Shown here in pieces: positions 10,911-64,000 of a stretch of 64,000 bases of DNA. The DNA is from Trichoplax sp. H2 (Eukaryota): the NCBI GenBank assembly GCA_003344405.1, contig NOWV01000188.1, positions 62,001 through 126,000 on the forward strand, in the 5' to 3' direction. The stretch's first letter is position 1, and each line of letters opens with the position of its first letter. The notes below the pieces were generated by a model, which ran no database searches, was not told where the DNA came from, and saw only the letters and a list, made by a program, of their open reading frames with translations. A program made the translations under genes and the position numbers.

Positions 10911-10932
10911 CTGTACACTGTACACTGTACAC
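10911..10932. repeat. (CTGTACA)3 short tandem repeat about 70 bp upstream of the TIM22 start codon
   Basis: ctgtacactgtacactgtacac read directly. Confidence 0.8.
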
Positions 10933-11317: not shown

Positions 11318-11940
11318 AGCTTCCTCATGTGCTTATCTATGTTGGATAGTTCCTGCTAAGATTACTATATTCCCGCTACTTCCTGATTTGGATTCAGCTA
11401 CCAGTTACGAAAATGTCCTTGCACATACATTATTAAAATTGACAGTATGGCTTATGTCCAAGGCAGCTTTCGTAGGAAATGTCTATCTTATATCGAAGCG
11501 CCGCGCCAGTACTAATAAAGAGAATTTAAGAAGTGCAGCTACTAAATTAGCCTTTCGAAATTTCGCTTTAACCGATTTTCTAACGTCGTTATATTAATTT
11601 ATTATTGCTATTAGCGATCTGATTTATCACGATCGTTATGCTCAACATGAAGAAGAATGGCTTAGTAGTCCATCGTGTATCATCGCGTCCTTTTTGCTTT
11701 GTACATCAAGCTTAATGTCAGTCATTATGATGATATTTCTTAGCGTTGATCGTTATACACTTATAACAGCACCATTCTCATCATCGGATAAAAGACATAA
11801 ACGCATAAAAATAAGTCTAATCTTGGATGGTTGATAGTATATCCTTGTATTAGTGTACCGATTTTTATATGTATTAATCCCGTCGAATTGGAAATTTACG
11901 CTTGCATCAGTTTAGCTACATTTAGCCAACAGTCAGGTTC
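11318..11940 (+). pseudogene. Disrupted leucine-rich-repeat-type (LGR/RXFP/GRL101-like) class A GPCR fragment, hinge to about TM4
   Basis: Reads YLCWIVP...PDLDSATSYENVLAHTLLKLTVWLMSKAAFVGN (hinge and TM1), NFALTDFLTSLY*FIIAISD (TM2, in-frame TAA at 11595-11597), EWLSSPSCIIASFL, LSVDRY (DRY at 11748-11756). A frameshift near 11820 precedes LGWLIV (TM4). No TM5-7 recognisable. Confidence 0.8.
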
Positions 11941-13027: not shown

Positions 13028-16000
13028 ATGAATCACCTCAGAGACGCAGTATCGCTCCTCCATTATAAAATTTCAGAAAAAACAAAGCCTCAAAAAGGTT
13101 AAGCCGATATTAGTTGTTTAGAATGAGTCATAACAATTTGATTTGAGATGGTCTATCCATATTTCTTTAACTTCTCCGCCAATTATAAACGTAAATACTA
13201 CGCGAAGAATCAATAACAATACAGATTTTATAGATAAAATTATTTTTAAAATGGTAGAGCAAGGGTTTTTTTTCACTTATTTTATAGATTGATTGATCAA
13301 TCGTGGTTGATCAAAGTCTTAATGATATACATTGACGATAATTATACAAACTATAATGAATATACTGTGAATCAATGCCATCCCCTTCCATATTCTATTT
13401 GTTATTGTCTGTCAAGTCTGCGGCTTCCATTATTCTAATGTCTTATGCCAAATAGGATTGTTATTTACTTGCTAATGAGATCATCTTTATAAATGCACTT
13501 TCGCATTAGTAATACATTATTGTTGATTTATCATGCTTAGACAATTACGGAAGTTACAAGGTTAGGAAGCAAATGAATTTTAACTTGACCAAGAAAAAGG
13601 TAAGATATCGCAATATGATGATGGGATGAGAAAGCAACCCATTTGAGAGATATATGGATTACCTAGTATCTTATTTTATCTATTTCTCTACCTAACTAAC
13701 AACTGTAATAGACTTGCCGCCATTTTTGTACATGGAGTAATACAGTCGATTTAAATTTATATATACGTTAATTGACGATTTTCTTAAAATTAGTTTGGCG
13801 TGAAACAGTTGTTATCGAGGACGAGTAGAGTTTAAACACCGCTGTTAATTAGAATTTTCCTGCTTAAGTAGATTATGAAATCATCTTGAATCTGTCAGAT
13901 AGTTCTTTAAGAGAGTCCATTTTGGGCAACTACGGTACATATCGTAATTCATTTTTAACAAATTAATCGTCAGAGTAGGATAGTTTGGTGTATTATAGCT
14001 CAAAGATAGGGCACTGATGATCCATTTTTAATAGAAAACTAGCTATAGTGGTAATGGAAAAACTATATAACCCAATTCTAACATGATTTGAGAGATATTG
14101 AGTCATTTATTCAAGCTGTATCTCATTAATCTTGCCTAGTCATTTAAAAACAGTCACAGATTAAATTCTAGAATTATAATAAGAAGTAAATTAAAAATAA
14201 TTGATGTGCGTTTAAAAGGGATTAGAAGATATTGCACACTTAATTTTATCGTATTAAATAGACTTCGGCAACTAGTCATAATTTACAGTTTAATTAAATG
14301 ACATTGGGCCTTCTAATTCAGCCCATTTGTACTTTTAATCGTAATAAATTGAACAGAAGTTAGTATTAGAATAATAAATTGTAGTTTGAAAGACGGTCAA
14401 ACATTGATTTCAGACTAGAATATTCACGTAACCATACCAAGTCAAGTAGATCAATAATAGCATGAAAATCTGCTAGAGCATTCACATTAGGGATTAGTTA
14501 GCTTGATAAAGTTCTGATCTAAATACCCAGATCACATCCTGTTTTAATTCTGAAATCAACTAATGGCTGATAGTATAGTTATTCTCATTTTACAAAGTGT
14601 AAAATCCAGTCATCAATCCAAAGACACCTGATGATAGCTGGAAATGAAATTTTTCCTTAATTAATGTTGCTTAAGCAGTGAATGTTGTTATTTTTTGCAT
14701 ATCAAGTTCGATAAATCAAAAATAGAATAATGAAGCATCATGAAACAAAATTTAGAAAACAACTAATCATTGCTAATGATACCGATGGAAAGCTAGAGCA
14801 ATAGTCTAGATGTTGGGTTGCATTTTTTTGAATTTATTCTTACCGAATCAAGTAGAAGTCAGTCATAGTCAACGTATCTTATTAAATAAAACAGCAATTA
14901 TAGGATGATAATCTGCAATAAGGCTATTTCTAATGTGCTATTGCCGTTACTTTGAATGTTTTTTGCATTTGATCTATTTCTGCTACCCTACTGAGGCAGA
15001 AATTGATCACGTCTCAATAATTGCTGTTGCCATGTTTCTGGAACGTAAGGCCAAGCTTGGATTTGACATTTCATGCTAAATTATTGTTTTTAATATTCAA
15101 ATTGTCTCCTAGCCATTGTCAAATAGCTTTGGTCTTGCTCATAAAGCTAAATAATTAATCGGATAGTTTTATTATGCTCATTGCATGATTATGTAATTAA
15201 CCTTAGGCACGGACAGAGATCAACTTTATTACCGAAAATTTTCATCGGCGCATTTGCAATCGCTATGTCAAAGATTGTGATGCAGAAAGCGACGGGCACA
15301 GGTAACTTTTTATGTTTTATTCCTCTTAACGATATATATTGACGGTTTTAAATGAAAAATTGAAATATAAGCCAGTTATAAACCTATAGAAATATTGATC
15401 CAGTAATCTTTGAATGTTATAGAGATGATAATTATAGATCGCAGTATATTAGTACCGTGTATCGCCATTATTGATTGTGACCGTAATAATGCTGATCTTA
15501 ATTGAAGCATTAATAGCAAATCTACCATTATTTTCTACGATATGATTGTAAATGAAGTATTGGCAAGCCATGCCAGTGTGGAGGTGATGAAAAATGGCAT
15601 CAAAGACTTAAAATAGCTGAATCTAGCTTCAATGGTAATTGGACTATGGAAAGCTGCACAAATAAAAGTCCAACCGATGCATTTGGCAAAATTCAATTCC
15701 ATCGCTATGGCCTAAAATCTTCAATAGCAAAGGTTATTTCTGCTAATGATGGTTTTGGAAGGCTTGTCATAATCCTCTAATTGTATCTCTAATCTTCAGT
15801 AAATTTAGCGATAGTACAGTAGTTTATCGACACTGCGCTGGTTATACCGTACTTAAAACTAAATTAGTGATTTTGATACCTTAAAGTTAACACTATAACG
15901 ATTTATTATTTACTTAAGCTATAGCCCATTGATATTACCCTATTTAAAATTTAAACACGATAACCAATCTGCTCTTCTGTTATTCAGTTCTCTTCAAAAT

Positions 16001-19000
16001 CAACCTTTCATAACCTTTAAAATTACAGTCGACATTATGAAAACGAAAAAGTTAACGTCTAAATGATTCTGTATTAAATTTACGTTTTACAAAAATCTCA
16101 TAAGGTAGATTACAGTTTAAAACAAGTACAGGAAACTATGTAAAATAACGAACCAATAGATTTAACTTCTTTAGTCAAATGTTAGGTTTCTATATCTACT
16201 AACAAGCGGCTTGATATATAATGTATTGCTCAAAGATCGGATTTTACTCGAGAATGATCAGATATATAGTAATTATAATCTTCTTAAGCGTAAAGATAAT
16301 TGTGTGTTTATGTATAAATTTTAGTACCTGAGAATTACTGTTGATGATTCCAAGGAATATCTACTGCAGCTACTCAATAAATACTGGGATATTAGTGATC
16401 GAAGCTTCATAATCTCTCTTATGGCTGATGGCGATGTGGGAAATACTCAAGATCCGTTCTCTTTCAAGAAATCACTTTATCATAATTTAACTACGATTGC
16501 TAATAGAGTAGCAGTGTGTCTTCTTACTTCTGGCTATCATAATGGAATTATTAAAGAAATAAGCCGAGCACTGAACGAAGATCGAAACGATGGTGATGAA
16601 GGTAAATGGCGGAAGAAGATTAATATGATTGGCATTGCATCATGGGGTGCTGTCTTAAATAAAGAATTGCTCCTAAAAGACAAAGTTAGTCCAAAAATAG
16701 AATTAATTCTATTTTAACTTAACGGAAAAGACTCTTTATATTTCTAGTTACTTATTTCTAAAGTTATTTTTCTTAATTGCATATAAATTAAGAAAAATGC
16801 AGAGCAAATAGGGCTGCTTCAAGATAATTTCTTATTTTACTGACAAAAATATTTATCCGTATTATTAATTCAAACAAATTCTTCATACAGTTAATTTTAA
16901 TGATAAATAGACTCGATTATGCATCAATTTAATATGTAAACTGATATGACAAATAAATATCTATCTTATATATAGAAAAACTGTCGATGTTATGCTGAGT
17001 ACGTTGCAACCAGAGAAGGCACTGGTGGATCCCTCCCATTAGATCCTAATCATACACATTTCATCTTGGCGGATGATGGAACGAATGGCAAACGAAAGGC
17101 AGAAGAAATTTTAAGAAATCAATTAATATTGGAGTGGTTGAAACAAAATAAACGTCGCTTAGGTAAGAGAAAATAAACATGAGTCAATTTCGTGAGGACT
17201 TTTAATCTTTGTATGAACTCAATTATATTCCCTAGATTTGAAAATGCAAAATTAGTTCTTTTCATATCAGTAGTTAATTTAGTAAAAGTAATGATGATTA
17301 TCGTATAACTATTTTCATTCTCAAGCATACTTATTTTAACTACATTAGAATACATATCTTCACATCTGTATTGCACATTACATGATAGCAAGTATTTGTG
17401 AGGTTTTGTAATCAAAGTTGGCTTTACTACAAGAGTATTTTGATTGTCGTGATACTATTTCATAGTTCCTGCTACTTTCGATAATAGTGCTATCAAGATA
17501 GCTGGAATATTTCAATCTGAATGTTTAAATTAACTTTATTAGGCACAAGTCGAATAGTAGGGGTTGTTCTATCAGGGAATTTAGAAACACTTCGTCAAGT
17601 GAAAGATTATGTTACCAATGATGTAACTGTTATAATCATTGAAGGCAGTGGAGGAATTACAACAATTTTGACAGATATCAAAAGTAGAAAAATGTAGGCT
17701 AAGTGCTTATATTTTAATCCTGCTAATTTTAAGCCATGAATGCGTAGAAAGAAATATATATCCTCAATAAAGATTTTAACAGATTCTTAACTAGCTTTCT
17801 TAAAATTGGAAGTAGTGATTTACAGGACAAACATTCTCAGCATGGAATAGCTAAAGCGTTAAGAAAAACCATCTATGATAGCACTGGTAGTCTCGTATCA
17901 TATGAAGACTGTGAAGCTTCTCTAGAGTATTTGAAAGCCATTCAAAAAAATTTAAAAAGGGTATATAAGTAGAAAGTTAAATTTATTTAATTATGCCTTA
18001 AGTTATATTCAACTTGATTATTTCTTGATGAGAGGATAGACTCTTTTACAACTATCTAAATAATGACTTGTTGACTTATTAGCATTACTAGCATAATTTC
18101 ACTTGGAGTCATTGTAGTTCCATTAAGCAAGCTACTTACAAGAATCATAGATTGATAATTATAAAACCATTATCTATTACTTACGTCCGTAGCTCTCAAT
18201 ATTTCCATCTTCAATTGGTAGGTAATTCTATACCAATCTCACCAAGATCCTTTAGGACAAGTGCTGTTTCAAATTTTGATGGGAAGAGGTACGATTTTAA
18301 ACAGTAAGAGTAAATACGAATTCAAGGTGTTTAATTTTATAACAATGAGATTAACAAATTTAGTATTATATGCCCAAATACAGAAACCTCTAGTGTTCTC
18401 AACTAATAAATATGTCCATAATATTTAGTAATGACGTGAACAAAATTCGAATCGATTAAAACTGTATCGTATTTAAGAAGACTAACGTTACATCATGATG
18501 ATAATTTTTTAAAGTAATGCAAATGTGTTGATCTTACTTAATGCAGTAGCTAATAAATTTTTATACTGCAGCTCTTATTAAAGTTTAATAATTTAAGCAG
18601 TGCCTTGAAATATTATTGTAATAATCCTAAAATCGAAGTTAGGCGATGGAAATAGTAATATACTTGTATTAAGTAATATTTCCTAGCCCTGTATGAATTT
18701 TATGCCCTAAAATAGTACATCATAGGCCGTAAATTAAAGTTTGTATTAATACAAAATAAGGTAAGCTACTAATCATTTTAATTAGTAACGCAAGTTAATG
18801 ATAATTTATATAGCTGATTATGATTATGAATAACTATCTGCAGTTTGTTGTTGATGAGGTTACGACTAAATAGTGCATCGAGGTATAGAGAAGATATATA
18901 AATTAAACAAATTCATATTCTAATATGTTTTAATATCGGCCCTAATTTCTCTTGCATGCATATGTCTTATTCCCTCAGAAAATATTTCAAGAGATATCGA

Positions 19001-22000
19001 CAGAGTATTTATTGCTGATGGAAAAATTGACAGATTAGATAGAAATAACAACGTAAAAGAATCATTGGGAACCACATCAGCACAAAGATTTACAGGGCCA
19101 ATAAAAATACCTTTCGATAATGGTGCTTCAAGTTGTACGAAAACGGCCGGGCAAGATAAATTACTTTCAAACGAAGAGAGTATTAGACGTGATCCTGACC
19201 TAATATCAGAGCGAATCAGTAAATCTATGGCAGTAAGTAGATCAATAAATGATTTATCTGAAAGTCCATTAAGACTAACTCTGCCTGGCACTCCATTGAG
19301 ACAAATACCAAGTAATTTAAATGGTAGCGTCTCCATTGAGGTGAAGAATGGCATTGATAAGACCATAGAAGAAAGCAAGGAAGAAAAAAAGAGCTGTAGT
19401 GATGAAAAAATAAATACTGATGTTATAATACCATCTTCAATAGCACAATCCCCTAAATTATCTAGAGGTGCTACTAGAGTGCAGGAACCAGTTAAATTGC
19501 CTATACTTCAATCTGGCAGAGTAAAAGATATCGATGAAAAACATATTTTGGAGAAGATCAATAAAGATAAAGTACAGCTCGACGATCATCTGATATCTAC
19601 ATCAATATCGAAATCGCAGGCTTTGGAAAATGTACGAAACTTAGATAGCTCTATAGCATCTAGCCTGGATAGATCAGGTATATTTTAGGCGCTCTAGTAA
19701 GATTAAATTCTAAGAAATCAAATTGTACATCTTCATTATTAGTATAATACAAGCAGAGTACATCCAACTCCTTTTATAATTATTAGGTGTAATTTTATTT
19801 CATTGCAGATAGTGTAGATGCCAGTAGGAGACCTATCTACAGTGATGACATCAAAGTAAAAAATCTCGATGAGACAGGAAATAAATGGACCATGACTAAT
19901 GAAGCTGTTGATGATGAAAGTGTTCATACAAGATCGATTAATGATTTACGGCAAAGTTCTAGGTCTACTTTGTCAATCTCTCAAACTTCTAGTTACGAAA
20001 ATGTAAATGGTGGCAAATTAGGGCCCCAGTCATACGTAGAAGATGTAAAAGAATTTCTTCTATTAGAAGATATACAGAGTTTAACAACTATATTAGCTGA
20101 TTGTGAACGGAAGGTATGGTTATAATCCTTTTCCAATAAGACCGCTAATTATAGATCTTAGGAAATTACAATTAGTATGATCGACGCTACCCTTCTGAGT
20201 TTTAACGATACTTTCCAATAAATACTACTGAATGCGAGTAATACGGTCTTACAGGAGAAATTGTTCATATTACACTTCCCTGTTTGGTCGTGAGTTGCGC
20301 TAGCAATCATAGAATAAAAACCTTGCCGTATTTTAATATTGTATTTTTCCTTAACGCCTTTAGGAATTATCCAATTGCAAGATAACCAATTCACATATAC
20401 TAACAGAATATTGGAATGAAGTTAGGAGAAAGACTGATGAAAATGCATGTCCAGATTTATCAAAATTCGTAACTCCCAAGACATTGCTCGAACTTTATGA
20501 ATTGGTATGATTAAAGTCTATGATTTATGATGACCTATTTTTATTGAAAATCTTACTAACTGATTTATAAGATGCTATTAAAATTTAATTCGTTATTATG
20601 AGATATAAATTTATGCCTTTCAGAGACATAATGTATAAGGATAGTAGACCACTTCTTCAGATTAATAAGATACTAAAATACGCATTTATCTGATATTTGT
20701 TTTATTTATCTTATATTACCGTAATATTTATGATTTGGTCTTTGCTTGATACGACTAAGGTCTAAATCTAAATTTCGATATGACAGTATGGTTTCATATT
20801 CTACAGCGTGAAAAATATCTTGAAAAAGACTACTTCATCAGTTACAATTAATTTTACTATAACAACTTTATATTACTTAACAAACTGTGATTATGTGTAT
20901 TCTATTTATTAGGCCACAAATTGTATCTTTTACAAGCTATATAATTCTAGGTACCTCATGCCATGTAACGATAATAAGGTATGTAAAAGAGTTTTACAAA
21001 CTTTATAGCAACTGAAAGAATGAATATTGCTATCTCAAACAATAATTATATGCACGTATATTTACATGATAGCTATAGAAATACGTAACTTCTAGCCATA
21101 CATACAGTTACATCAAATATTTAAGTCTTTACGAAATGCAGTTTCATTATTAGCTGCTGATGTTGTTCATGAATTAATAGTCATTAAAAATATATGCTTT
21201 CAAATATTACATCGGTGTACTTTAGATTAGTTGAAAGTCGAACGTACTATGCTTTAGGCTAAAGCAATTGATATCCATATTTTAAGCTAATCAGGTTGAA
21301 AAGTAATCTAGATTGACACATAATCAATCCATATTTCCATTTTAGCAGTCATGCAATACCGATGAACGTTGTTATAAAGCATTATGCAATATTGGTAGCG
21401 TTATATCCAAGCTGATGGGGCATAATTACAATAATCCTTATATTAAATATCGTGCACGTCCATTAGCTAAAGATAGTGGTTCCAGTATTGATAAGATAGA
21501 TGGAAATAATAATGGCAGCCTGCCGATGAACGATCCTTATAATCAGTTATATTTATGGGCTGTATTAACTGGTCGTGACAAGCTAGCTGTTTACTTATGG
21601 GAGCAGTTGGACTATCCTATTGTTGCCGCGTTAATTGCTGCTCACCTTTTGCTGCGAATGATGGAGAAAGTAGAACTAAACGACGACTCATCCGATATCC
21701 GCGGCCAGTATGATGTACAATATCTTCAAAATAGAAGCGGGTTAGAATTTCATTGCTGAACAACGATTATAATTACAATTTATGCATGGCCGTGATCATC
21801 GGATACTGTTGATAAGCGGGACAGTTTTATATTGTCGATGCCATCATCTGTAACAGTTAAATGCCCTATTTATTTTTATCCGTTAGCAGATCTTGCCATT
21901 GGTATAGATGGTGATTCCACTAATTGCAATAGGAATATAAGTTGTTGTTAATATTTGAAAATATTACAATATATCTTTTCTTTTAAGTATTACTGAGATA

Positions 22001-25000
22001 AACATCTATAGTTCAGGTTTGCTACCGCGTTTTTTTTTCACGTATATCAATTTAAGCATGATAAAACATCAGAACTAGTTGCAGTTTTAAACAAAAAAAT
22101 CCTCTCATTAGTATCGCATCCCAGTGTTGGTAATTATGAATTGCTACGGTATATATTCCATGCAAAGATGTGTAAGGTATATCATGGCACGAGAAATTAG
22201 GATAGGATGATATATATAACCTATATATATATATAGACTGCTAAAGAAAGACCTTTTTGAAGTAATCCATTGCTAGTGTTAGTGTTATTCTATGTTGCTA
22301 CCTATGCTTTTCTAATCTTCTACTATCAACTATGTCCTAAAATTTTTTCGTCTGTTGTCCCCGTGAAGATAGAATACTTACTAAAATTGATTTGCGCTAA
22401 CAAAAATCATCGAACATTTATTTATCATTCAGCTGTCTACTTGTAAATGCTATAAATTAGATAAATATAATTTAATAACCCTTATTTTTCACTTTAAAAA
22501 TCTTTTTAGCACGTATATCAAATTAGCTATGGGGGTCATGAATACGTATTACTCCAGAAAGCGTGATAATGCGATACTATCATTCATGCAAGAAATTCCA
22601 AGTTGGGAAAATATATCTTGCTTTTCTATTGTATTTGCGTCATCGGCAATGCAAGATATAATGGTCCAAGATTGCTACCAAGATTGTTTGAATTATTTAT
22701 GGACTGGAGCAGTGGCTGTAGATACACCGATTTGGAGGGTAAATCCCCTGTAAACTTAGCTTTGCATAATATTTATTAACTTCCAGGATTGTTTTACCTC
22801 TTACTAATCATCCTTATTTGGTTTATCTAATTTAACTCTAGGTCTTGGCATGCTTTATTTGCCCACCACTTATCTCCTGCAACGTAGTAAAATTTAAGGA
22901 ATATTCTAATTCCTCTCAAATTAATAATCAAATTATGGGTAACAAAGAAGTGACTTCACAAGTCCAGTTGGAAGAATTAGCTAGCAACAGGTCTAAAGCT
23001 GCACAAAGTCTAGCTAAGAATACCAAGAATAGCATCATTAACTATAACGACATGGGGCCATCAGCCATAAGATCTTCACGATATTGGGATTTTTACTTCG
23101 CTCCAAGACCCATCTTTATACTTAATTTGGTAAAAAAAACCTAGCTATATATGCCATTATATTTAATAAAATACTTTCAAATAATATATCCTAGTCAATA
23201 CGTAATATCATCCTAGTCAAATACTATACGCAACAATGTGCACTTATGCTGTTTTACTTTATTTGTCTAGTTTTGCTACCTGGTTTTCCTGGTTACTTAC
23301 GCTGCTTTTATCATGACTCAATTTCGCTTATATATACAACCAATCGAAGTAGTATTAATTATCTGGGTATCATCTTTACTACTGGAAGAAATAAAACAGG
23401 TTGTTAGCAAGATGTTTTTGTATCGATATGCATATCGTTTTGATAGTTTAATTCAAAATCATTATAATTTACAATGTAACGTTCATTGAAAAAAATTAAC
23501 GTTTCTTATTCTTCATATCCTATGGCTTGATATGCTAGATCATGTGCTCTCCTAAATCAAGCTACACAAGTAAATTAGCCTTTTGGTGGGAAGACTACTG
23601 GAACAGAACTGACGCTCTTGCTATTATTACCTTCTACACTGCATTGATTTTAAGGCTTGTACCAAACTTGGGAGGAGCAGGCAGATTTCTCTATTGCATC
23701 GATTTTATCGTTTTTTGCCTTCGTATACTGCAGTTATTATCATTACGCGTCAATTTGGGGCCTAAAATGGCTATGATCAGGCATATGGTAATAAATTTGT
23801 TCTAGTAATTGTAACCATTCATAATAGTAAATCATATATATATTTAAATAGTCAAAGATTCTTTCGAAATATTTTGATATTCAACAATTTTTGTGTATTA
23901 TTAGGCGATGCGATTTAGGCTTACTTTTGCATAATTGATAAAACTCATTCATTTACCTTATAGAATGTCGATATTATAGTGAAGCGCTAATATTTTAATA
24001 ATTTCTTCAGTTATCAACAAAGCATTACAATATAAATTGTATATTTCACAAAGCTTTATCTCATAAAATACTTAGAAATAGGGTTCAATATTCGTATAAG
24101 GAGCGAATTAAAAATTACAATATCCATAAAGCGGAAAGGAGTTATTTTTCTCTTGGAATATCATTTAGATTTGAGGATTGCTATTTCACTTTTCAATTTT
24201 AAAAAAAATTGAAAGATCATATTAACAAGTGTATACGTGTGTTTCTTGCTTGTGGTTGCCTACTTAATGGATGATAGCAATAGTTTATTTAATACTCGAA
24301 TGTTCCTTTGTAAAATCAATGTAGTAGAGTAAAGATTTTCTATAAATCTAAAAACCACTGATTGAGTTTACTTGTAGTATTGGTTTTAATATTACTACAT
24401 AGTAGAGTTGAGCTGATAGGCTATGACATACTATTAATGCCAGTCTTTCTTTTTCAGATTAAAGATTTAGTATCTTTTTTGATCATCCTATTCGTCTTCT
24501 TGGTAGCTTTTGGTGTCGCCTCACAAGCAATTTTGAATCCTGTTTCTAAATGGGATGATACTGTTTTCAAAAGGATCTTTTACGTCCCTTATTACCGAAT
24601 TTACGGAGAATTATTCCTAGAAGAATGTAAGTTTTCGTAACGCGTACTTGACTATTGTTATCACAACCGCATACTGAACATAAGTGTGTTTGCTATTGTG
24701 TTCATTATTTTCATTTAATGTAATTATGCCAGCTTCGAATTTAAATGTTTCTGTTCTCGCTAGCTATGATTCTATGTTTATATGTTTTTATTCTTAATTT
24801 GTTTATTAACGTATATCTACCATTACGTAACAGCCTAATGGGTAGCAAGCATGAAGCTAATTAAGCAATGCGTATTAATTTAATTTATACATTTTAAATC
24901 TTGCTTTAAAACAAACAGCCTACAATTGCAACAGCTCTGCCACAGCTCAATATTGGGCATATGATTGTGCAGCTGGTGATATCATCGTCAATATTTTGGT

Positions 25001-26268
25001 GGTTATTTATTTATTATTAACTACAATCTTACTACTAAATCTACTAATTGCCATTTTCAAGTAAGTACAGTAATTATAAGCTTATCTGACGAATATATAA
25101 GTCGTGATATCATGGCTATATTACGAATCATCGTTTAGATAGTTGCATTACTTTAAACGATGACATTACTGTAATTTAATACTTACTATAAACGTTAGAA
25201 TTAAATAAAGGTTGTACAAATATTATAACTATTTAAGGCTTACAATCTATGGTTTAGTCAAATTGAATGATATCTTAGCATTGATTCTACTATTTAATAT
25301 ACGAGATATTAACAGATTTTATAACTATATATTGCAAGAACTGTAATCAAGATTGCTGGAATTACTTTAATAATATCTTTTACTTCGATTTTACGATATT
25401 AAATAACTTAAGTAAATTTAGAGATGGTAAAGCGTGATTATTTAGGCAGTATAACCTTAATATCTGCTTTAATTTTATCTTTACTCTAATTTAGTAACAC
25501 TTACACCACCATCGAAGATCGTGCGGATAAAATTTGGAAAATTCAATACAATGATTTATTACGAGAATATCTATTTCGATCACCCAGCGTACCTCCATTG
25601 AATTTATTTACAATAATCAAGCAAATTTTTCCTACAAATATGACAAAAGCCGTTGCCGACTGGAAAAGTTTTCTTAATCAACTCATCAAATTAGAACATT
25701 TAAGTACGCATAGATGCTGTTAAGAGTACATTAGCCAATAAATTGACAGCAAAGTAAAAACTTAGCGCAATGCATAACTGAAAATCTTTTAATTCTTGAT
25801 CTTTAAATGTTAGAAATTCCCAGTAAAAACATGGGGGCCGCAAAAATCGAGGAACTGAGAATTTTAGAAAATAAATATCTGAAAGAATATTTAAGTCACA
25901 GTAACAAAGAGCTATCAGATAGGAATGCCAGGAGCATCGAAAATAAACTTGACAGTTGCCTTGCTCAGTAAGTCTGCTTTATCCGTGCCAAACTTGTTTT
26001 TTCTAAGTTGAAATTTATAATCATATCACTCTGCAGTAATATTTAAGATTTCATACTCCGCATTGATTTACAAATTTAATTATTGTACTTTTCATGTGGT
26101 CAATTAATACAGATTTATCATGATGTCTTAGCAATTGATTTTTTTGATAGGTTAATTAGACTAAATGGTGAAATTTTAAAATTAAAAAGAGAAAATCAGA
26201 GTATTGCAACATTTCTGGGACAGACGAGTTTGGCTAATCAACCTTATTTACGGCCTGCAGATAGCTAA
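13028..26268 (+). CDS. TRPM: TRPM-like cation channel, copy 1 (about 23 exons, roughly 1500 aa)
   Basis: Phase-compatible exons: 13028-13097, 13541-13599, 15207-15301, 15558-15732, 16325-16684, 16976-17162, 17543-17693, 17795-17960, 18222-18288, 18979-19677, 19809-20113, 20364-20504, 20913-20978, 21346-21740, 22510-22738, 22842-23129, 23271-23399, 23539-23787, 24458-24626, 24919-25060, 25495-25703, 25814-25967, 26151-26268. Motifs: CQCG, TDAFGKIQF, IGIASWG, LDPNHTHFILADDG, LYLWAVL, EEIKQ, WNRTD, LGPKMAMI, PYYRIYGELF, LLNLLIAIF, WKIQY. The first exon is the least certain; an alternative ATG lies at 13573. Confidence 0.88.
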
Positions 26269-52200: not shown

Positions 52201-55200
52201 AATGTCCGAAAGCGTCTTGGTCAAAAAGAACCACAAAATTATTGATAAACTAAAAGATCGAGGCAGGTTGGTTAGGAATATATTATATGTGCTGCATTGA
52301 TAACTTTGCGTGCTTACCTGTGTTACCCTGAATATTTTAATGAGCATTAATATTATTACTAAATTTAATCCATACATGCATTAGCAAATAAATTACTGGC
52401 AATGTGTGAAATCAAAGCATTTCAACATACTCGTATACGTATTATAAGATTACGCTACGCTTTGCCTGTTTAAGAATTGATAATTGCCTCCGTAGCTTGC
52501 TTTAAATTCATATCTAGGGTTAACTTAGCATGGAATATAATATCCCACGATATATCGTCATTACTTGTAAGCTACTTGAAATTTTCGTCTAGATTATTCG
52601 TTACTGGCACAGGGGGAATATTTCAATGGTTTAGTACTGCCGTTAAGAGCTTCCTTTAATTTTTTCATCAAGAACGCAGATTATAACAGCATTGGTTCAA
52701 AAAAAGATACTGTATTGCCACAACGAGTATTACTGCTAGGATTGATTTAAATGTCTACTTATAAGATGATTAACATTATAGAATTATAGTTGATAATTAC
52801 CTGTATGGCTGACTTTAAATTTTCATGTATGATTAACTACTGTAAAGTTTTTCAATTTTCTAATTAGAATGTTAATCATTGATTCTTTCCTAATATGGTA
52901 TTATTAGCGTAAAGTTTGCGGTAATTTTACATCGAGGGAGTTACTTAGTTTGGACTAGTAATGGCGATCATACGTTCATACGATAATCATTAAACTTTTC
53001 TTAACCTTTCGTGTAGTAAATGGATTCATTTAAAAATGATCTGGAGTACGTAATACTTCGATAAATGTGATAACTATAGTGTACCAGCTCTTAATCCTTC
53101 TTCTACGATATCTTCTATCTAGTACATTTATTAGTTTAGCCTTGGGTGTAATCAACGAATGCTACAAGGAGAATTCTGATGATGCAGTATTATTATTTAT
53201 GCAAGAATTACCTGATTGGGGAAACTGCTCCTGTTTCGCTATCGTTTTCGCATCATCGAGGATGAATGATATCATCATCCATGACTGCTACCAAGAATCG
53301 CTTAATAATTTGTGGACCGGTGAAATAAAAACGACTACTCCTATCTGGAAGGTAAGTGAAAATATTGCTAGCTATTCCTAACTGCTATTTCATTAGTAGA
53401 TACTATAAAAACATTCGAATTTTGCCTTGCAGTATGTTTGATATATTTCTAGCTTAACATTTTTATTCTATATTGAACTTTAGGTCTTGCTATGCATCGC
53501 TTGTCCCTTCCTAGTCTTCACTGATTTCGTCCAATTTAAACCTCATGCCCATTTATATTCCTTTTATCGCCAAAATAACGTAATACCCGATGCTAACAAG
53601 ATAACATCACAGGAAGACATTGAAATAGCTATTGATAATGTTTGTAGTAATTGCGAACAGAATCAACCGAGAAAAGTTCGAGAGAAGTTAAACGATCAAC
53701 TCCAAATGTCTAAATTTAGTCTATTACGACTAGAAAAGTTTTATACAGCACCTAGGATGATTTTTCTACTTAATATGGTAAATTGACTTGAATAAACTCA
53801 ATTTTATTAGTTACCGGTAGCCAATATTGCTATCGGTATTGGAGGCTAGTTTCCTAATAAATTTAGATGGAAAAATATCTTAATTTAATATATTTAACGG
53901 CATTATCACGAAAGAATTTTCTGTAAATAGACTGCAATGGCAAGCATTATAGATAGTTCATCAACTCAAATATTTTTACTATTTCCATTTTTTGAATTCA
54001 GCTTACCTACGTAACATTTCTGATCGTCTATGCGGTTTTCATCATGACTAAACTCGATGGACATATTAAACCAATCGAATATGTCTTGATAATTTGGGTG
54101 TCAGCACTTGGATTTGAGGAAGTTAGACAGGTAATTCTTTTAGTTCGATCTTCTTGATGGGGTATAAAATGCTAAAGAGATGTGCGGCTGACGATGAAAA
54201 TCGTAATTAGTTCGATAGCTTAGTAGCCATTGAAAGTAATTTATCGTTTATGAGATTAAACATTTTACTGAATATGTATTCGTGCTGTTATTGTAGCTAA
54301 ATAAAACAAGGCACATAACCATAATTATTTACCACTATATCTACAGATTATCTTTGCACCCAAGCCGCGATTTATTAGTAAATTAGCATACTGGTGGTCC
54401 GATCATTGGAATAAAACTGATGTACTCGCTATTATAGCATTTTATTCAGCCGTAATTTTTCGGTCATTTAATGAAACAGGAGAAGTAGGTAGATTAATTT
54501 ATTGCGTGGATTTTATCATCTTCTTCCTTCGTATGCTGCAAATGCTTTCCGTTCGCGTTAACCTGGGACCAAAAATGGCCATGATCAGACACATGGTATT
54601 AGTTAATGATGCTTCATTTTATTTTTAGTCTGTATTTATAGCTTGGTAATTAGATATTTTTAAGTTAGAGATGCAATTAATACTGTAGGATGGGTAATTT
54701 TGACATATATTTTTCAAAGCACCAGTAATGCTATATAGAAATCTACTTTCATATATCATAAATTCTCAAATCTATGAGGATATGCATTCATTCAGTCCTA
54801 CTTCTAAGATACTCGATCATTAACTGTATTCATTGTTGCAAAACCCACATGCAAGAAGAAACAGTATAAGGGCATTACATAGGAAATATAAATCACTAAG
54901 TTATAAAGGATTCCTGAAATACCTAATTAGTCGAATTAATTCTACCTATTACATTATATTACCTATATCAATACGCTAACGCGAATTTCCTGTATGATAT
55001 CATATTGTCATCGATCAATTTTTATAGTAGTGATCGTTTTTTAGGTTAAGGATTTAATTTCTTTCATCATCATCTTACTCGTCTTTTTGGCTGCCTTTGG
55101 TATTGCTACACAAGCTATATTATATCCGGTAGCTGAATTGAGTAGCACAGTAATAAAAAACATCTTTTATGTTCCCTATTATCGAATCTATGGCGAATTA

Positions 55201-57194
55201 TTTCTGGAAGAAGCTAGTAAGTGATCTAAGAAATAGACTTAAGATTTTGAATAACTTATTTCATACCTAGTTGGCTATAGCATAAAGATGGCGACCTGCT
55301 ACTACAGATTTCGTATGAATATGGTATTTCGATATCAAGAGTTTCTCAGCTAGCAGTAATCCGCTAAAAACGCCTCATATCATAGCACTTCTTGGCGAAT
55401 TGTATCGTTCCTGAAATATTTTGAGCAGCTCGGCGCCAGTTTACCGTTTGCAATACCACGGCCTAGAAATTTTCTATAAAATTCTTCTCCCGAAATAGGA
55501 AATTAGGCTATTTTATGTATATTAGCTTATTAGTTAGAGATTTGCGATAGTATAAGATTATACCGGCGCTAATTTACATCAAAAGCGAAGTTTGAATATT
55601 TTGGAGAAGTAAGCACCACAAGCTCAAGATTTTCTAAGGAAGAAAATTCTCTCTAAATATGAAATTAGCCTATTTTACTTTTACTTGCCAGTTAATTAAA
55701 GTTTTACAATAGTATGAGATTATGCTACCGCTCATTTCCATCGATAGCAAAAATATATGAGTATTAACGTCAAGAGTTCTCTGCTAACGGAAAATGGGTA
55801 TACAGTAATACATATTAGTGAATCGCTACGAAAACTTATAGGTTAATATAAAAACTTTGGACATTTAAATATTATTTATATAACTACTAAAATATGAATG
55901 TGCCCCGGAAATGCTTATTAAGGAAGAATATCTGACCAATTGAATATAAAGTTGATCTCTAGGAATAGTTAAACATGATTTAATGACTAAAATTAGGCTT
56001 AAAGTATACCTAAACATACTATAGAAACACGTTATGTTTACCATCCGCTTTTTAGGTATTAAATGCCTTAACTCGGACCAAAGAAATGTCACTGAAGATT
56101 CCTTCGCTTATCATTGCACTTCCCGTGAAGCTATCGTCAACATTTTATTAGTAATCTATTTGCTACTAACAACAATTCTGCTATTGAATTTATTAATTGC
56201 CATATTTAAGTAAGTTCAATCGTTTATTTTTAAGATTAATAAACTAAAATACAAATAAAATGGTTGCATAACAACCAACTATTATAGGGATAAGACATGA
56301 ATCTTAATTTATTGATCTAAAACTAATAGCTTGCATCATATATCTATCTTGTAGCTATTCAAATTTTTCATTTCTTGTATTTCTTTAGTAATACCTATGG
56401 TAAGATTGAAAATGAAGCCAGTCGAATTTGGAAGATTCAATACAATAATTTGCTTCGGGAATACTTGTTCCGATCTCCTAGTGTTCCACCTTTGAACTAT
56501 TTACCAATTCTTTATACATTATTACCATGGAATTGGAAAACGTCGGTAGCAAGTTGGAATAGTTATTTGAAACAACTTGCTAATTTAAAACACTTAAGTA
56601 AGTTTATCTAAGTTCCATCTTTTGCTTTGGGAAGAGAACTTGTCTAAGAGTTACTCATCCTTGAATACTCAAATCCACTTATTGATATGATATCGACAAC
56701 TGCTGATCGTTTCTTGCAGAAATTCCTAAGAAAAAAATTCATGTCTATGACATCTGCAGAATGCAGAATTGGGAAAAACAGACACAGATTTCATATTTAA
56801 AAAAAAGTAAAAAGTCAGAAGTTAAGGAAGGAGCCAAGCGCGATAAACTAGATATTTGTTTATCAAAGTAAGTTAAATATAAAGTATAACAGGATTCTCA
56901 GCTCTATAAAATATCCATCTAGTAAAATGAGTTACTATTTATTCAATGTATCGTAGATGCATTAATAGGTAGATTAAGCATGAAAATAAGTGATATTTCA
57001 CTTATTATTATCGCGAGTTATTAAACCGTTTTAGAAATGATAGTGAATCATTCATAATCTCTTTTCTCTATTTTCCACTCTATAGGATAGAAGAGTTAGC
57101 AAATGATCTTCGTTTACTGAAAACCCAGCTTGCCAGCACATTGGCTACAAATTCGAGTACCTCCTCTCTAATAGAATCTAAAGACCACTCGTAG
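46221..57194 (+). CDS. TRPM: TRPM-like cation channel, copy 3 (compact form, roughly 1180 aa)
   Basis: Approximate exons: 46221-46232, 46718-46809, 47039-47207, 48012-48368, 48526-48709, 49009-49156, 49245-49380, 49538-49601, 50388-50473, 50585-50725, 51572-51637, 51866-52266, 53122-53351, 53484-53777, 54002-54130, 54347-54595, 55045-55216, 56056-56209, 56388-56596, 56720-56867, 57086-57194. Motifs: FQKREC, TDAFGEIQF, MWNRIE, MKKALLGDREDIV, FVTPSRLQDLY, ELFLWAVL, WGNCSC, EEVRQ, WNKTD, YGELF, WKIQY. Confidence 0.9.
47341..47472 (+). pseudogene. Fossil (degenerate) TRPM exon inside intron 3 of copy 3, most similar to exon 4 of copy 4
   Basis: 47385-47420 matches 62457-62492 at 34/36 nt. Flanks (gagtctatgc-gatgct; atgaatatgcagtatttaga) also align with that exon but carry indels. 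Confidence 0.82.
49890..50245. repeat. Two diverged intronic direct repeats, period about 250 bp
   Basis: ctggat...ataaccgtt.ac...at.tagtaat...aatagttaaaa...atgtccacattactcata occurs from about 49894 and about 50147. Confidence 0.7.
51082..51360. repeat. Intronic direct repeat, period about 233 bp
   Basis: ttaaaattgctcaccagctctgcc occurs at about 51083 and about 51316. Confidence 0.7.
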
Positions 57195-59245: not shown

Positions 59246-62200
59246 ATGAAAGAATTGGTAAGACTTCAATCTTTTAATTACTACTGTAGGATCATTTATC
59301 GTTAACTTATCAGTAGAGAATCATTGATCACACAGTTATGCTTTTGAAGGATGATAAATTAATTATCTATTCACGTACGGTATTTTATCGTGGGTTATGC
59401 CCTTCTTTAAAGTAGAGACGACCAATATAAACTGAAAGGAGTTACCATTGCAAGTTCTACCTATTATTTGTACTCATTTGAGTTATGGTTCAACTCCAAT
59501 GGATGATAATTCTCTTAGTAAATCAGTGTAGGCAATGAATCAAGCTAAATTATCTAGTCTTGATGCGTTTTTCATTAGATCTCCATCTTTCAGTGACTGA
59601 CTTCTCTAGAATAGATACTATTACATCGTATCGTTAATACTGATCTTGTAAGAATTACCTGACATGAATCTACCAAAAATTAGTCCAAGTCTTTCGGCAA
59701 AATTAGAAAACATTTTTTCATCAGATTGCTTAGACATTATCTGGACATAGAATATGCTCGTCCTCATCGCGATAAGGATGTTTCTTCGGCCTAGATGAAT
59801 CATTACATAAATATATCAGTAGCGGTAGCATATTTTAATCAACAAGCTGAACTGAATATTCCTTTCTTATGCTCTTGTGACTGGATAATCCATCAACTAT
59901 CGACAATTTTTGAAGCTTATACTCAAATATCAATCGAGAATGAATCTTCTAAAATCAAATCTTCCTATAACTCTGATCCTAATACTAAAATAAGAAAGTA
60001 ATTTTATGAAACCACTAAATGATGGCTGCCCATTAGTTATAGCCTATTCCTGCAGTAAGAACTCTATCGTTTCGCATAAAAGGAGTCTTCTGTTCAGTTT
60101 ACATGGAAGATCCTGATATGTCTCGTATCAATAATTAGTACAAAGCTCCTGTTCAAATATTTCAGGATTAAGCATCTCGTTGCTTATCATGTTAGCCATT
60201 CTATAATTTGGTAATGCAGATAAATTTATACGACATCTTCCACAACTGACAGAGAAAATAATCTTAATTCATTTATGATTCCAATCCTATTAGGCTACAG
60301 TATTAAAATGAGATTAGTATTCAATTTAGAAGACGATTCTTAACGCCGATGTGGAAATTAACTACTAGAACAGCAGTAGTTCTAATAAGAAACCTTTTTA
60401 TCCTCTGATCTATTCAGTAAACGATGTTGAATACAATTTAGGATCCTGTAAAGTATTAATATCAACAATTTTCTTCACAATTATAATTGCAAGAACACAA
60501 AGTTAACCCCAAAATCCAACTTAATTATTTCGAGTCCATTTGCGTATATAAATAAGGATCATAAAGAATCCCACTTTTATTATTATTAGTCTGTTTGAAA
60601 GTTTAACTAATCCATTTTAAGCTTTTAAAAGCACTTGGTTAATAAATGACATAAAATAGAACTAATTTTCATCCTGATGAGTGATCAATGTGTTTGTTAT
60701 ATCAATTAATTCTAGCGATCAACGGTGAAATTTATTACCGAAAATTTCCAAAAATGCGAGTGTATAAATTACGTGCAAGGAAATAATTGGGAAAGCGATG
60801 GAAAGGAGTAAGATAATTATGCTAAGCTATAACATTTTTTATGCTGTGACTTAATCAAAAGTTAAGACAAATTAGTGTTTAATGGAGTCATTGAATAGAA
60901 GGTAATCAAGGCAGTTTAAATTTAATTTAGCTAAAAACATTAAATTCCTTCTAATATTATACTGTACCATAAATGTTTTGCGGACAGCTAATCTAGAATG
61001 TTTATTACGGAGGATGAAGTATTTAGTGTAAACCTAACTGGCTAAATGATCAATATTGAAGCATATACAAACCAACATTTATGACTCTATCATTCCATTC
61101 GATTAATTTAAAGTTACTTAATGGTATTTTACGCCGTATCCTTTCTTAGTCTATTTTATTAAAAAGAGATTAGCAATACTTAAGTACAATAGAAGTACAT
61201 TAATCTATAAATAACGATTCATACAGCCTAGTTGATCAAAAGTTAGGTATGACATTTAACATTAACTAACATTAGCAATTCTGTAATTACATTCGATTGA
61301 TTGTAGTCATTTCATTTTAGAACTTTTATACAGTATCAAACACCCTATTCTTTCTTGATATATTTTACTAAAAGAGATCAGAAATACTTTATTAAAATAA
61401 AAGGATATTAATCTATAAATAGCAATTTAAGTAGCCTAGTTGACTAAACAGTAACTTTGATTATAGACATTAACTAGCGTTAACGATTCTGTAATTACAT
61501 CCAATTGATCGACAGTTATCTTATTTTAGATCTTAATCTTTCTCGGTAAATCTACTTAGTAGAAATTAGTATTACTTATAGTAAGACATAAGCATATTGA
61601 TCCATAATCAACTCTGTATACAGAAAATGATATTCAAGATCTAATTATTACTGTTAATCAAAATGTATCCTTCCATTTGTTATTTTATACTCCAAATTTA
61701 ACACCGACAAGTCTGTTTAGAAAGATTTACTGTTAGTAATAGCTTATAATTTGGTTATGAATACAGTATCATAGATAGAAAATCAAGTACGGTAGTGAAT
61801 ATTAACAGAGTTAAAGACAAATAATGACTCTACAAAATCTACGATTGAACACATCGTTACTTTAGAAACTAAGTAATACAATTATTATTATACAACAGAA
61901 TCGAATGAGTCAAGGAATAGTGCCGTAATTAGGCAATATTGAGAATAGTTTACAGGTTCTCTGGCCAACTCTTTGGCCAGATCAGCTATGGTATAACTAA
62001 TGATAATTTCATTTCTTTAGTATTAAACGTTGCGTCTGTGGGCGAAAGAAGCATTCTAATCGGGGTCGTCCAAGGTCTAATGGAATCCTTGGTGAAATTT
62101 GGGACTGGAAAACTCACACTGAAAGGCACTGTACAGATGCATTTGGTGAAGTTCAATTTTATCGTTATGGAATGAAACCTTCCACAGCCAAGGTTATCAC

Positions 62201-64000
62201 TTAAAATGTTTATTCAGTAATACTTCCTTCTAGAATGAATTAGTCATAAGAATAGGTATAGGTGTCTCAAATCGACATCGTGCTTTTGTTGCCATTACGT
62301 ATCTAGCGAAATTATAGATTGAAAATATTTCTTGATTTTAAGCCATTTCGGAGCTAATATTCTATCAATATAGTTACTAATTCTAGCTATTTTCAATTAA
62401 AATTATAGTATCTACGAGTCAATGCTGATGCTCAGTCATCACGGTTACTAACATTGCTTAGCGAGTATTGGGGCATCAAAGATCCAAGCTTAGTGATATC
62501 GATCATTGCTGATGGTGACGATGAATATGCAATGTCTAGAACAGCTAGAATTTCATTTTGTAACAATTTAGCCAGCGTGGCTAGAAATGCTGCTGCTTAT
62601 ATTGTTACTTCTGGTTATCATATTGGGATGCTAAAAATTATTACCAAAGCACTTAATCGCAATCTAAATAGCAATGGAGAAGGTCTACAAAAAGATATTC
62701 CGGTTGTTGGAATTTCAACGTGGGGTTCAGTTTTAAATAGAGAATTATTACAAAGCCAAGTGGTAAGAGAATCCCATTTCATCTTTATCTTGAGCTATCA
62801 ATGTTTAATTTATCGAGTTTATATCGAATCATCCACTCAATATTCTTATTCAATAAAGAAGCAATTAAAGGTCAATGCTATTACTAAATTGAAATCATTA
62901 TTGCTAAATCAATGATTGATATAGGGACATGGGTGCTATCCAGCTAAATGTGTTGCAGTTAGAAAAGCTGCTGGCCGATTTCTACCTTTAGATCCATTTC
63001 ACACTCATTTTATTTTAGCTGATGATGGCACAATTGGCCAGCGTAAAGCTGAAGAGATATTGAGACAAAATTTAGAAAATGAATTACTCAGATTGGAATT
63101 TAACGGCGGTATGAAATGCAATGGGTTAAAATAAATACCGCATAAACTGTAGTAGTTCCTCTAATCAGCCTTCACCAAGTAGATATTCTACGATAGGATT
63201 TTTTATTTATCTCCTGGATTTGATAAAGTATAACTAAACATATAGGCTTGTTTCAGTTATTATCAATGATTACATCTTGGTAAAAGGTATAGCATGCTTG
63301 TGAAGAAACTACTTCTTTAACATATTATAAAGTGATATCCAACTATAATACATAAATTACTAAATTGTTATTAAATTACATATGAACGTCAAGCAAGAAC
63401 ATAATTCTATTATGCTATAATAAAGATTAGATACAGTACTTTAATCCTAACTTAGCATACCTAAAATATTTAGCGTTATTTTAAGAAAAAGATAGCCAGT
63501 TGAACAAATTTTAACACGGTTACGATCGCTAGTTAACCTTGAAATAATTTCAATTATGAACTGATTAATACGTCTATAATTAAATATATTGAAGTAGATA
63601 TTGTATTTTCCGGTAATCTTGGTTATAGGTAAAGTTCCCATGATACAAATTGTGATTTCCGGAGATGAAAGAACTTTGGTAAAAGTCAATAAATCCCTTC
63701 AGCGTCGCATACCTGTTTTAGTTGTAGAAGAAACGGATGGTGCTGCGACTATTTTAACATTAGTTAAAGAAAGCTGGTAAGTCAAAGTATTTCAATTTTC
63801 CTCAGAAATTTATTCTATTTATTGCATAACATGATCTAAAATCGATAATTGGCAATAATCAATTTATAATAATTTTGACAAATATATCTCATCTTTCAAT
63901 AGCAAACTTCAGCTCGATTACTTAGAGCAGCGCATTTGTGAAAAATTCGGTTGGAATATTGCTGAGAAACATACCACTTTAAGAACAAAATTGCAAGACT
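59246..64000 (+). CDS. TRPM: TRPM-like cation channel, copy 4 (5' part; truncated by the window end)
   Basis: Exons 59246-59257 (MKEL), 60716-60807, 62021-62192, 62409-62762, 62925-63108, 63629-63776 and 63903 to beyond 64000. Motifs: CVCGRK, TDAFGEVQF, VGISTWG, LDPFHTHFILADDG. Closest to copy 3. Confidence 0.86.
61201..61530. repeat. Two diverged intronic direct repeats of about 120 bp, period about 208 bp
   Basis: taatctataaata...agcctagttga...acattaacta...attctgtaattacat...attgat...attttaga occurs from 61201 and about 61409. Confidence 0.72.

Follow-up and report, generated by a model that had tools for sequence, protein, structure and literature searches.

Four tandem TRPM-like channel genes in Trichoplax sp. 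H2 with a conserved channel core and diverged cytosolic parts

The stretch of DNA analyzed here, 64,000 nucleotides of Trichoplax sp. H2 (contig NOWV01000188.1, positions 62,001 to 126,000 of the forward strand; hereafter the window), carries four genes encoding TRPM-like cation channel subunits. Channels of the TRPM family serve as major sensors of chemical, thermal and ionic signals; some of them are parasite drug targets. The four genes, which we call copies 1 to 4, lie head to tail in tandem on the plus strand (Table 1) and stand out as four co-linear exon sets in a translated self-comparison of the window. The genes of copies 1 to 3 span 10.5-12.8 kb each. A preliminary description of this DNA, made from the sequence alone, had proposed such an array of divergent, same-strand paralogs with shared intron positions and phases, and had placed its start at 13028. 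The ATG at that position opens only a 24-codon open reading frame (ORF) that nothing ties to copy 1, and the first homologous exon begins at 15207.

The four genes and their place in the TRPM family

Exons were located with a purpose-written spliced protein-to-DNA aligner, using eight unrelated TRPM proteins as targets against each copy. Eight core exon slots of copies 1 to 3 and three of copy 4 were settled in this way, with canonical splice sites and equal phases throughout. The other exons were curated site by site, and the completed copy 3 protein was afterwards aligned to the remaining copies as a check; aligning the raw ORFs of one copy, with intron read-through, to another had given spurious mini-exons and was replaced by this curation. 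Without exception, the resulting models have GT at their 65 donors and AG at their 69 acceptors (53 TAG, 12 CAG and 4 AAG), and there are no internal stops in the 1501, 1650 and 1185 codons of copies 1 to 3 or in the truncated copy 4. The genes are thus not disrupted. Exon start phases are identical at 20/20 slots shared by copies 1 to 3 and at 6/6 slots for copy 4, and the introns of the copies map to identical or neighboring columns of the alignment, which bears out the shared intron structure seen earlier; the phase count is not fully independent, however, because the sites of several weakly conserved exon slots (S4, S5, S9, S10 and the inserts described below) were picked partly by agreement between copies. 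Exons have a G+C content of 36-38% and introns, 54-1213 nt in length, of 27-30%.

A tblastn comparison of the window with these models and 152 library proteins gave 1188 high-scoring segment pairs, all on the plus strand and all at or after 15207. Each of those outside the exon models either bridges an intron or represents a relic in a copy 3 intron, and the comparison yielded no further TRPM copy or fragment in 1-15206 or on the minus strand.

Copy 4 runs past the end of the window. A word search with the S3-S4 exon of copy 3 returned a single protein, P0152 (1223 aa, from a contig of 151,579 bases), which over its residues 8-325 matches residues 32-349 of the copy 4 model at 100% identity and supplies the part of copy 4 that the window lacks. 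Since P0152 is present letter for letter in the Atlas, the copy 4 gene has already been predicted in a public record. P0152 runs from its own start exon (MSQGIVP; Table 1) into exon 62021-62192 and skips exon 60716-60807. Because the skipped exon has a conserved counterpart in all four copies and is nevertheless bypassed, we regard the 5' end of P0152 as either a doubtful annotation or an alternative one, arising for example from an alternative promoter.

The domain content of the copies is that of a TRPM protein. Exons of all four match the Pfam LSDAT_euk model, which is the SLOG domain in TRPM, with E values of 8.5e-15 to 3.2e-23, and full-length copy 4 scores 135.6 bits against the same model, as expected of an N-terminal SLOG/MHR1-2 region. 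MHR3-4 is represented by the Pfam TRPM2-like domain (E 1.8e-11 to 3.8e-14 for exons of copies 1 to 3; 107.5 bits for copy 4). The SLOG exon of copy 3 matched 58 solved TRPM sequences and copy 4 matched 60. In copies 1 to 3 the hydrophobic segments coincide with pre-S1 and S1-S6, full-length copy 4 matches Pfam Ion_trans at 47.9 bits, and alignment with 42 other TRPM proteins is continuous through S4-S5, the pore and S6, as in a six-helix channel. After S6 comes the TRP helix with its box of the W-K-x-Q-R-Y type, present as IWKIQYN with its W kept (34 of the 42 other TRPMs have W), and then a helical-looking C-terminal tail. Also conserved are the S2 E..Q and S3 N..D residues, which bind Ca2+ in solved TRPM2, TRPM4, TRPM5 and TRPM8 structures.

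Each of the four copies has 3-6 N-terminal cysteines in its first two detectable exons, around a conserved CxCG, and copies 1 to 3 have a C...C pair in the pore loop ahead of S6, with 12-15 residues between the cysteines. None of the copies has a kinase domain; a NUDIX or NUDT9H domain gave no match in copy 4 at E up to 0.01, and copies 1 to 3 stop 150-160 residues past the end of S6. According to PMC13143021, a Cys-rich N-terminus is a TRPM feature absent in TRPS, TRPS has kept NUDT9H, and two pore-loop cysteines are a feature of bilaterian TRPM. On these features, the Cys-rich N-terminus and the lack of NUDT9H argue against TRPS for the copies, and the two pore cysteines fit a bilaterian TRPM.

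To place the copies, relatives were collected by a HMMER search with the SLOG exon of copy 3, which returned 359 proteins at E up to 1e-3, of which the best 150 were taken. The same search returned no protein at E up to 1e-30; the best match was 47% identical and exon-sized only. A word-indexed homolog search with this exon against longer proteins found nothing, and two Atlas searches returned only general TRPM clusters of mixed phyla. Forty-four of the best 150 proteins span both SLOG and the transmembrane (TM) region of copy 3, and 42 of these, without the two shortest (P0122 and P0137), served as the comparison set; seven partial or fused rows were also omitted from the IQ-TREE runs. The tree was built from a fast alignment of 39 rows and 1008 columns under LG+G4 by a short search, with SH-like approximate likelihood ratio test (SH-aLRT) support.

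In this tree the four copies form one clade, ((1,2) 100, (3,4) 99) 100, on a stem of 0.92 changes per column, and both a FastTree run and a run with the truncated copy 4 gave the same grouping. Global identity is 49% between copies 1 and 2, 60% between copies 3 and 4 and 44-47% in the cross pairs, so that the division into two pairs, which had been read from the sequence beforehand, stands. The clades of the tree were labelled via solved structures, which identify TRPM1/3 and TRPM2 only and include no named beta-like, gamma or TRPS reference: P0145 (2126 bits to TRPM1 and about 2006 to TRPM3) labels the TRPM1/3 clade and P0021 (1539 bits to TRPM2) the TRPM2 clade. The window clade lies outside both. 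Its sisters are the long-branched proteins P0143, which has a Cys-rich N-terminus and a NUDIX match, and P0094 (SH-aLRT 95, with a warning from the tool that long branches meet).

The copies have no one-to-one orthologs among TRPM1-8: the scores of copy 4 against the solved TRPM1-8 structures are all of similar size (278-377 bits) with no favorite, whereas P0145 and P0021 reach 2126 and 1539 bits against their own subtypes. Neither the tree nor the bit scores group the copies one to one with known TRPM orthologs, and the earlier proposal of a subfamily distinct from TRPM1-8 is upheld by both. The best solved structures for copy 4 are Nematostella TRPM2-like (PDB 6co7) and zebrafish and human TRPM2 (377 and 372 bits), whose domains follow the same order as far as the TRP helix, but the scores against TRPM3 (353), TRPM4 (345), TRPM1 (336), TRPM5 (334), TRPM8 (313) and TRPM7 (279) are barely lower. 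Unlike TRPM2, copy 4 lacks NUDT9H, and the selectivity filter of the copies reads Y-G-E whereas that of the TRPM2-representative clade is mostly F-G-Q. The filter glutamate is shared with vertebrate TRPM1/3/6/7 (YGE/FGE), as in the P0145 clade. However, the copies are not nested in that clade, have no kinase domain and, in copy 4, no TRPM_tetra match, and their S4-S5 linker has LGPK in contrast to the LGPY/F of the TRPM1/3-holding clade.

The TRPM family is divided into alpha, beta and beta-like groups plus a gamma group, with TRPS as its sister family (PMC13143021). The copies have the layout printed for the TRPM family, with the same SLOG/MHR1-2 and MHR3-4, six-helix channel, TRP helix, Cys-rich N-terminus and two pore-loop cysteines, and, like them, the bilaterian alpha, beta-like and gamma groups are described as lacking NUDT9H (PMC13143021, PMC7306681). 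What sets the window clade apart from the printed family is its long stem and the fact that its only sisters are two long-branched proteins. Independent TRPM expansions in many invertebrate lineages have already been described (PMC13143021, PMC7306681). Flatworm TRPM-PZQ and TRPM-MCLZ, by the account in PMC11731825, belong to a multi-member invertebrate set in which some members have, like the copies, only the SLOG and channel architecture; by that description, however, schistosome TRPM genes cover about 50-150 kb on different chromosomes, whereas the window copies are compact and in tandem. Limited literature searches on invertebrate TRPM expansions and flatworm TRPM paralogs yielded no description of this array or of its residue changes, and the supplements of published phylogenies may include these genes.

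The preliminary description had proposed a candidate lineage-specific family, a term that has to be qualified. In a tree of SLOG exons, three exon-sized proteins from other small contigs fall inside the window clade (7/156 tips, support 1.0): P0004 is 64% identical to copy 1, and P0001 and P0151 are 67% and 72% identical to copy 4. All three end at the end of the window exon. With relatives at 64-72% identity in other records, the family therefore extends beyond this locus or has further paralogs; the three proteins represent either related organisms or additional paralogs, and whichever their origin, the split of the 1/2 type from the copy 4 type predates them. Six other library proteins (P0002, P0003, P0005, P0007, P0012 and P0019) have two or three SLOG segments in series, which suggests that they are tandem TRPM arrays of other genomes merged into single gene models.

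Conserved core and diverged cytosolic parts

The S4-S5 linker RVNLGPKMAMIRHM, the pore helix and filter FYVPYYRIYGELFL and the S6 segment LLLTTILLLNLLIAIF each occur exactly three times on the plus strand of the window, in copies 1 to 3 (Table 1), and all three are present in P0152 and hence in copy 4. The near invariance of these motifs, first noted for copies 1 to 3, is thus exact and extends to the fourth copy.

We compared the residues at these and neighboring positions with the 42 other TRPMs; every window residue in this comparison is common to all four copies. In the S4-S5 linker, the M that follows LGPK is found in 1/42 other TRPMs, the A that follows LGPKM in none, and the H of IR-H-M also in none, with R or K at this position in 37. 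Before ILLLN in S6 the copies have Thr, a residue found in none of the 42, of which 35 have Asn. The TRP box of the copies reads Q-Y-N, and at the Y position 32 of the others have Arg and none has Tyr. The filter is different in this respect: its first residue, Y, is found in 26/42 other TRPMs and its third, E, in 28/42, and the unrelated protein P0104 has an almost identical pore helix. The YGELFL pore is the common invertebrate state and not a departure. Of the shared departures from the TRPM consensus claimed at the outset, those in S6 (N to T), the TRP box (R to Y) and the S4-S5 linker hold, and the Y-G-E filter drops out. In other TRPMs, the regions that hold the replaced TRP-box Arg and S6 Asn are connected with gating and with dependence on lipids; the TRP domain has been linked to phosphatidylinositol 4,5-bisphosphate and gating (PMC7306681).

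Identity between copies varies strongly along the protein. It is 40-63% in the N-terminus and SLOG, 20-36% around the insert region, 40-53% in MHR3-4 and 30-55% in pre-S1; it rises to 60-71% in S1-S4, 73-77% in S5-pore, 63-79% in the S6 exon and 61-77% in the TRP exon, and is 27-36% in the C-terminal tail. Nonsynonymous divergence (dN) follows the same pattern, being lowest in the core (0.16-0.29) and higher in the N-terminus (0.34-0.55) and the tail (0.50-0.93). Synonymous divergence (dS) is saturated or reaches at least 1.2 in all regions; in the core it is 1.3 for copies 1 and 2 and saturated in the other pairs. Values of dN/dS, which are rough where dS is saturated, are 0.12-0.64 wherever computable and so below 1 in every region. 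With dS this high or saturated and dN/dS below 1, the duplications are old and all copies look constrained.

As a measure of how far the core is conserved relative to the cytosolic part, we took the ratio of identity in the S1-TRP columns to identity in the SLOG columns, from one alignment and with eight partial or fused rows excluded. All six window pairs give a ratio of 1.39-1.63. In 473 pairs of other TRPMs, drawn from one representative per 50%-identity cluster, the median is 0.83, and in the 325 of these pairs with SLOG identity in the range 0.38-0.60 the median is 0.81, with a 5-95% range of 0.63-1.08 and a maximum of 1.36. The conserved pore with diversified cytosolic domains that had been proposed for these genes is therefore seen in every pair, above the highest value of the comparison set. 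At the DNA level the three motifs differ among the copies at 5-17 of 39-48 nucleotides, and all of these differences are synonymous; identical residues are written in different codons in 44-59% of cases in the core and in 48-57% in the N-terminus. That identical motifs are encoded by different codons points to selection on the protein and excludes recent gene conversion as the source of the core conservation.

The regions of lowest identity include large inserts in copies 1 and 2, located between MHR1/2 and MHR3 and made of one or two extra exons plus a 5'-extended exon. Copy 3 has 36 aa at this place. The insert ORFs have 254 and 110 codons in copy 1, in DNA of 31% GC, and 302, 94 and 138 codons in copy 2. 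Polar, charged, Pro and Gly residues make up a fraction of 0.69 of the copy 1 insert and 0.67 of the copy 2 insert, compared with 0.42 of the TM core. The two inserts are 24% identical over 291 aligned residues, and neither has a Pfam match. By eye, the segment 37244-37310 of copy 2 resembles the short exon 35387-35453 of the same gene (I-I-x-x-D ... Y-x-x-L-L), which might reflect an exon duplicated within the gene.

The second intron of copy 3 holds a relic of a SLOG exon start (Table 1). Its 25-26 in-frame residues are 73% identical to copy 4 (62424-62501) and 76% identical to P0001, and are nearer to these than to the corresponding exon of copy 3 itself; a short way further on the frame closes. 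The relic is probably a remnant of an old unequal exchange or of an exon duplication. Introns of copy 3 also contain two pairs of direct repeats, 49937-50014/50190-50267 (about 250 bases apart) and 50994-51068/51217-51291 (about 220 bases apart), both of which were seen as weak translated self-matches.

Predicted channel properties and alternatives

The sequence shows how the genes are built, that they belong to the TRPM family, that they are intact and old, how constraint is spread along them and that they have no TRPM1-8 orthologs. We consider it likely that the four arose by tandem duplication and encode channel subunits with a constrained core and diverged cytosolic parts. Several points weigh against this reading. 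None of the four copies yielded an exon with a start codon: their first detectable exons (15207, 31700, 46718 and 60716) follow a phase-0 TAG acceptor and have no Met, with 4-6 residues before a conserved F-I-x-x-N-F motif, and when the four upstream regions were compared in translation, the matches were no better than chance (E 0.05 or worse) and no shared start exon emerged. The start may be supplied either by a short unconserved start exon or by an AUG-carrying trans-spliced leader. Trans-spliced leaders often carry AUG (PMC9851317), and extending this to the present TRPM copies is speculation. Two joints of the copy 2 insert, 36649/36918 and 37184/37239 (the latter a 54-nt intron), are uncertain. 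Pfam Ion_trans gave no match from single TM exons, and TRPM_tetra gave none in copy 4; the same model matched only 2/34 other TRPMs scanned. The dN/dS values are rough owing to saturated dS, and the set with which the core-to-SLOG ratios were compared consists of cluster representatives in a fast alignment and not of within-genome paralogs. Finally, gating could be altered or lost as a result of the exchanges at the TRP-box Arg and the S6 Asn.

On this reading, old tandem duplications separated first the 1/2 type from the 3/4 type and then the two members within each type. Each protein has a Cys-rich N-terminus, SLOG/MHR1-2, MHR3-4, six helices, a two-Cys pore loop with Y-G-E, the TRP helix and a short helical tail. 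From homology we infer the channel activity, ion selectivity, regulation and assembly of the copies: each would form a tetrameric non-selective cation channel with a filter glutamate. A glutamate at this position occurs in divalent-permeable TRPM members. Under selection, the core from S1 to TRP has stayed almost unchanged, and divergence has gone into the cytosolic gating domains, the disordered inserts of 335-475 aa in copies 1 and 2, and the tail. With a fixed core and diverged cytosolic parts, the paralogs most likely share one permeation pathway, and they would most likely differ in the input that opens or regulates them or in their site of expression. For assembly, the conserved core would allow subunits to mix and the divergent tail would argue for separate assemblies; we would provisionally guess that each copy forms its own homotetramer, and the two members of a pair may mix.

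A first alternative, already raised in the preliminary description and given a modest chance here, is that the paralogs assemble, by necessity or by preference, into heterotetramers, a frozen core keeping their interfaces compatible and their cytosolic domains adding several inputs to one channel. The core is indeed unusually conserved relative to SLOG in 6/6 pairs and is kept so by selection. TRPM6/7 and TRPM1/3 heteromers exist. More generally, TRPM channels have been described as homomeric or heteromeric (PMC7761947). The C-terminal tail, however, is the least conserved ordered part of the copies in both identity and dN. In known TRPMs this tail holds the coiled coil that drives assembly. 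Bolder still, and in our estimate improbable, is the idea that the copies represent an undescribed TRPM clade, defined by a frozen core, the lost TRP-box Arg and S6 Asn and fast SLOG/MHR, insert and tail divergence, in which interchangeable sensor modules would act on one pore, possibly in mixed tetramers.

There is also a slim chance that one or more copies are unexpressed or decaying, leaving fewer than four working genes. The lack of a detectable start exon in all four copies, the replacement of the TRP-box Arg and S6 Asn and the large, poorly conserved inserts of copies 1 and 2 speak for this. Yet the spliced frames stay open, with neither a stop nor a frameshift in 1185-1650 codons, every region has a dN/dS below 1, the odd residues are common to all four copies and so predate the duplications, and insert ORFs of 254 and 302 codons far exceed chance opening in DNA of this composition. 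The weakest alternative, that gene conversion between neighbors, and not selection on the protein, made the pore, S6 and linker nearly identical, has some appeal in that the copies are adjacent and in the same orientation and the copy-4-like relic in a copy 3 intron implies that DNA moved between copies at some time, but it deserves almost no credence and was rejected as largely refuted by synonymous codon divergence: the motif differences are all synonymous, the share of differing codons in the core equals that in the N-terminus, and core dS is 1.3 at the lowest and otherwise saturated.

The four intact genes do not change the current picture of the TRPM family; what the array adds is an expansion, specific to one lineage, within a channel family that is well known. 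As a compact set of four old paralogs, it offers a natural experiment on the coupling of gating input to one pore, and it supplies natural substitutions at two usually conserved residues of the gating region.

Feature coordinates and surroundings of the array

Table 1. Coordinates, in window positions, of the TRPM gene models and associated features.
Feature	Position	Strand	Remarks
Copy 1 TRPM gene	15207..26268	+	21 exons found; 1501 aa without missing start exon; stop 26266-26268
Copy 1 exons 1-7	15207-15301; 15558-15732; 16325-16684; 16976-17162; 17543-17693; 17783-17960; 18222-18288	+	
Copy 1 exons 8-14	18979-19677; 19809-20113; 20364-20504; 20913-20978; 21346-21740; 22510-22738; 22842-23129	+	
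Copy 1 exons 15-21	23271-23399; 23539-23787; 24458-24626; 24919-25060; 25495-25703; 25814-25967; 26151-26268	+	
Copy 1 insert	18979..20113	+	extra exon 18979-19677 and 5'-extended exon 19809-20113; 335 aa, polar
Copy 2 TRPM gene	31700..44517	+	22 exons found; 1650 aa
Copy 2 exons 1-7	31700-31791; 32051-32219; 33033-33392; 34096-34282; 34787-34937; 35017-35194; 35387-35453	+	
Copy 2 exons 8-15	35864-36649; 36918-37184; 37239-37609; 37696-37824; 38380-38445; 38921-39348; 40128-40365; 40791-41084	+	
Copy 2 exons 16-22	41400-41528; 41885-42133; 42656-42824; 43078-43228; 43330-43538; 43659-43812; 44409-44517	+	
Copy 2 insert	35864..37609	+	exons 35864-36649, 36918-37184, 37239-37609; 475 aa
Copy 3 TRPM gene	46718..57194	+	20 exons found; 1185 aa; without large insert
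Copy 3 exons 1-7	46718-46809; 47039-47207; 48012-48368; 48526-48709; 49009-49156; 49245-49380; 49538-49601	+	
Copy 3 exons 8-14	50367-50473; 50585-50725; 51572-51637; 51866-52266; 53123-53351; 53484-53777; 54002-54130	+	
Copy 3 exons 15-20	54347-54595; 55045-55216; 56056-56209; 56389-56597; 56720-56867; 57086-57194	+	
Relic of copy-4-like SLOG exon start	47355..47429	+	inside second intron of copy 3
Copy 4 TRPM gene	60716..64000	+	first 6 exons; remainder past window end
Copy 4 exons	60716-60807; 62021-62192; 62409-62762; 62925-63108; 63629-63776; 63903-64000	+	
P0152 start exon (MSQGIVP)	61905..61924	+	MSQGIV at 61905, then GT; in S0-S1 intron
S4-S5 linker RVNLGPKMAMIRHM	23746-23787; 42092-42133; 54554-54595	+	exact matches; 6-8 of 42 nt differ, all synonymous
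Pore helix and filter FYVPYYRIYGELFL	24578-24619; 42776-42817; 55165-55206	+	exact matches; 6-9 synonymous differences
S6 LLLTTILLLNLLIAIF	25011-25058; 43179-43226; 56160-56207	+	exact matches; 5-17 synonymous differences

The window has a G+C content of 27-37% in 2-kb steps and a single run of 20 N at 24-43, and it behaves as animal nuclear DNA, with spliced GT-AG genes and fragments of a rhodopsin-type G-protein-coupled receptor (GPCR) and of a Tim17-family protein. Scans of the whole window for tRNA genes and Rfam families gave zero matches.

Immediately 5' of the array are plus-strand ORFs at 11271-11962. One of them, 11598-11831, matches the Pfam family 7tm_1 (rhodopsin family; E 5e-9) and has a DRY-like motif, and so a GPCR gene adjoins the channel array. 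Further upstream, the minus-strand ORF 9895-10149 matches the Pfam Tim17/Tim22/Tim23 family, and its 5' part is overlapped by a tandem duplication at 10088-10351 (132-base unit, 2.0 copies, 95% match). Finally, a 115-codon plus-strand ORF without a Pfam match, at 2917-3261, encodes a hydrophobic stretch with a cysteine-rich tail after it and could be the gene of a small secreted peptide.

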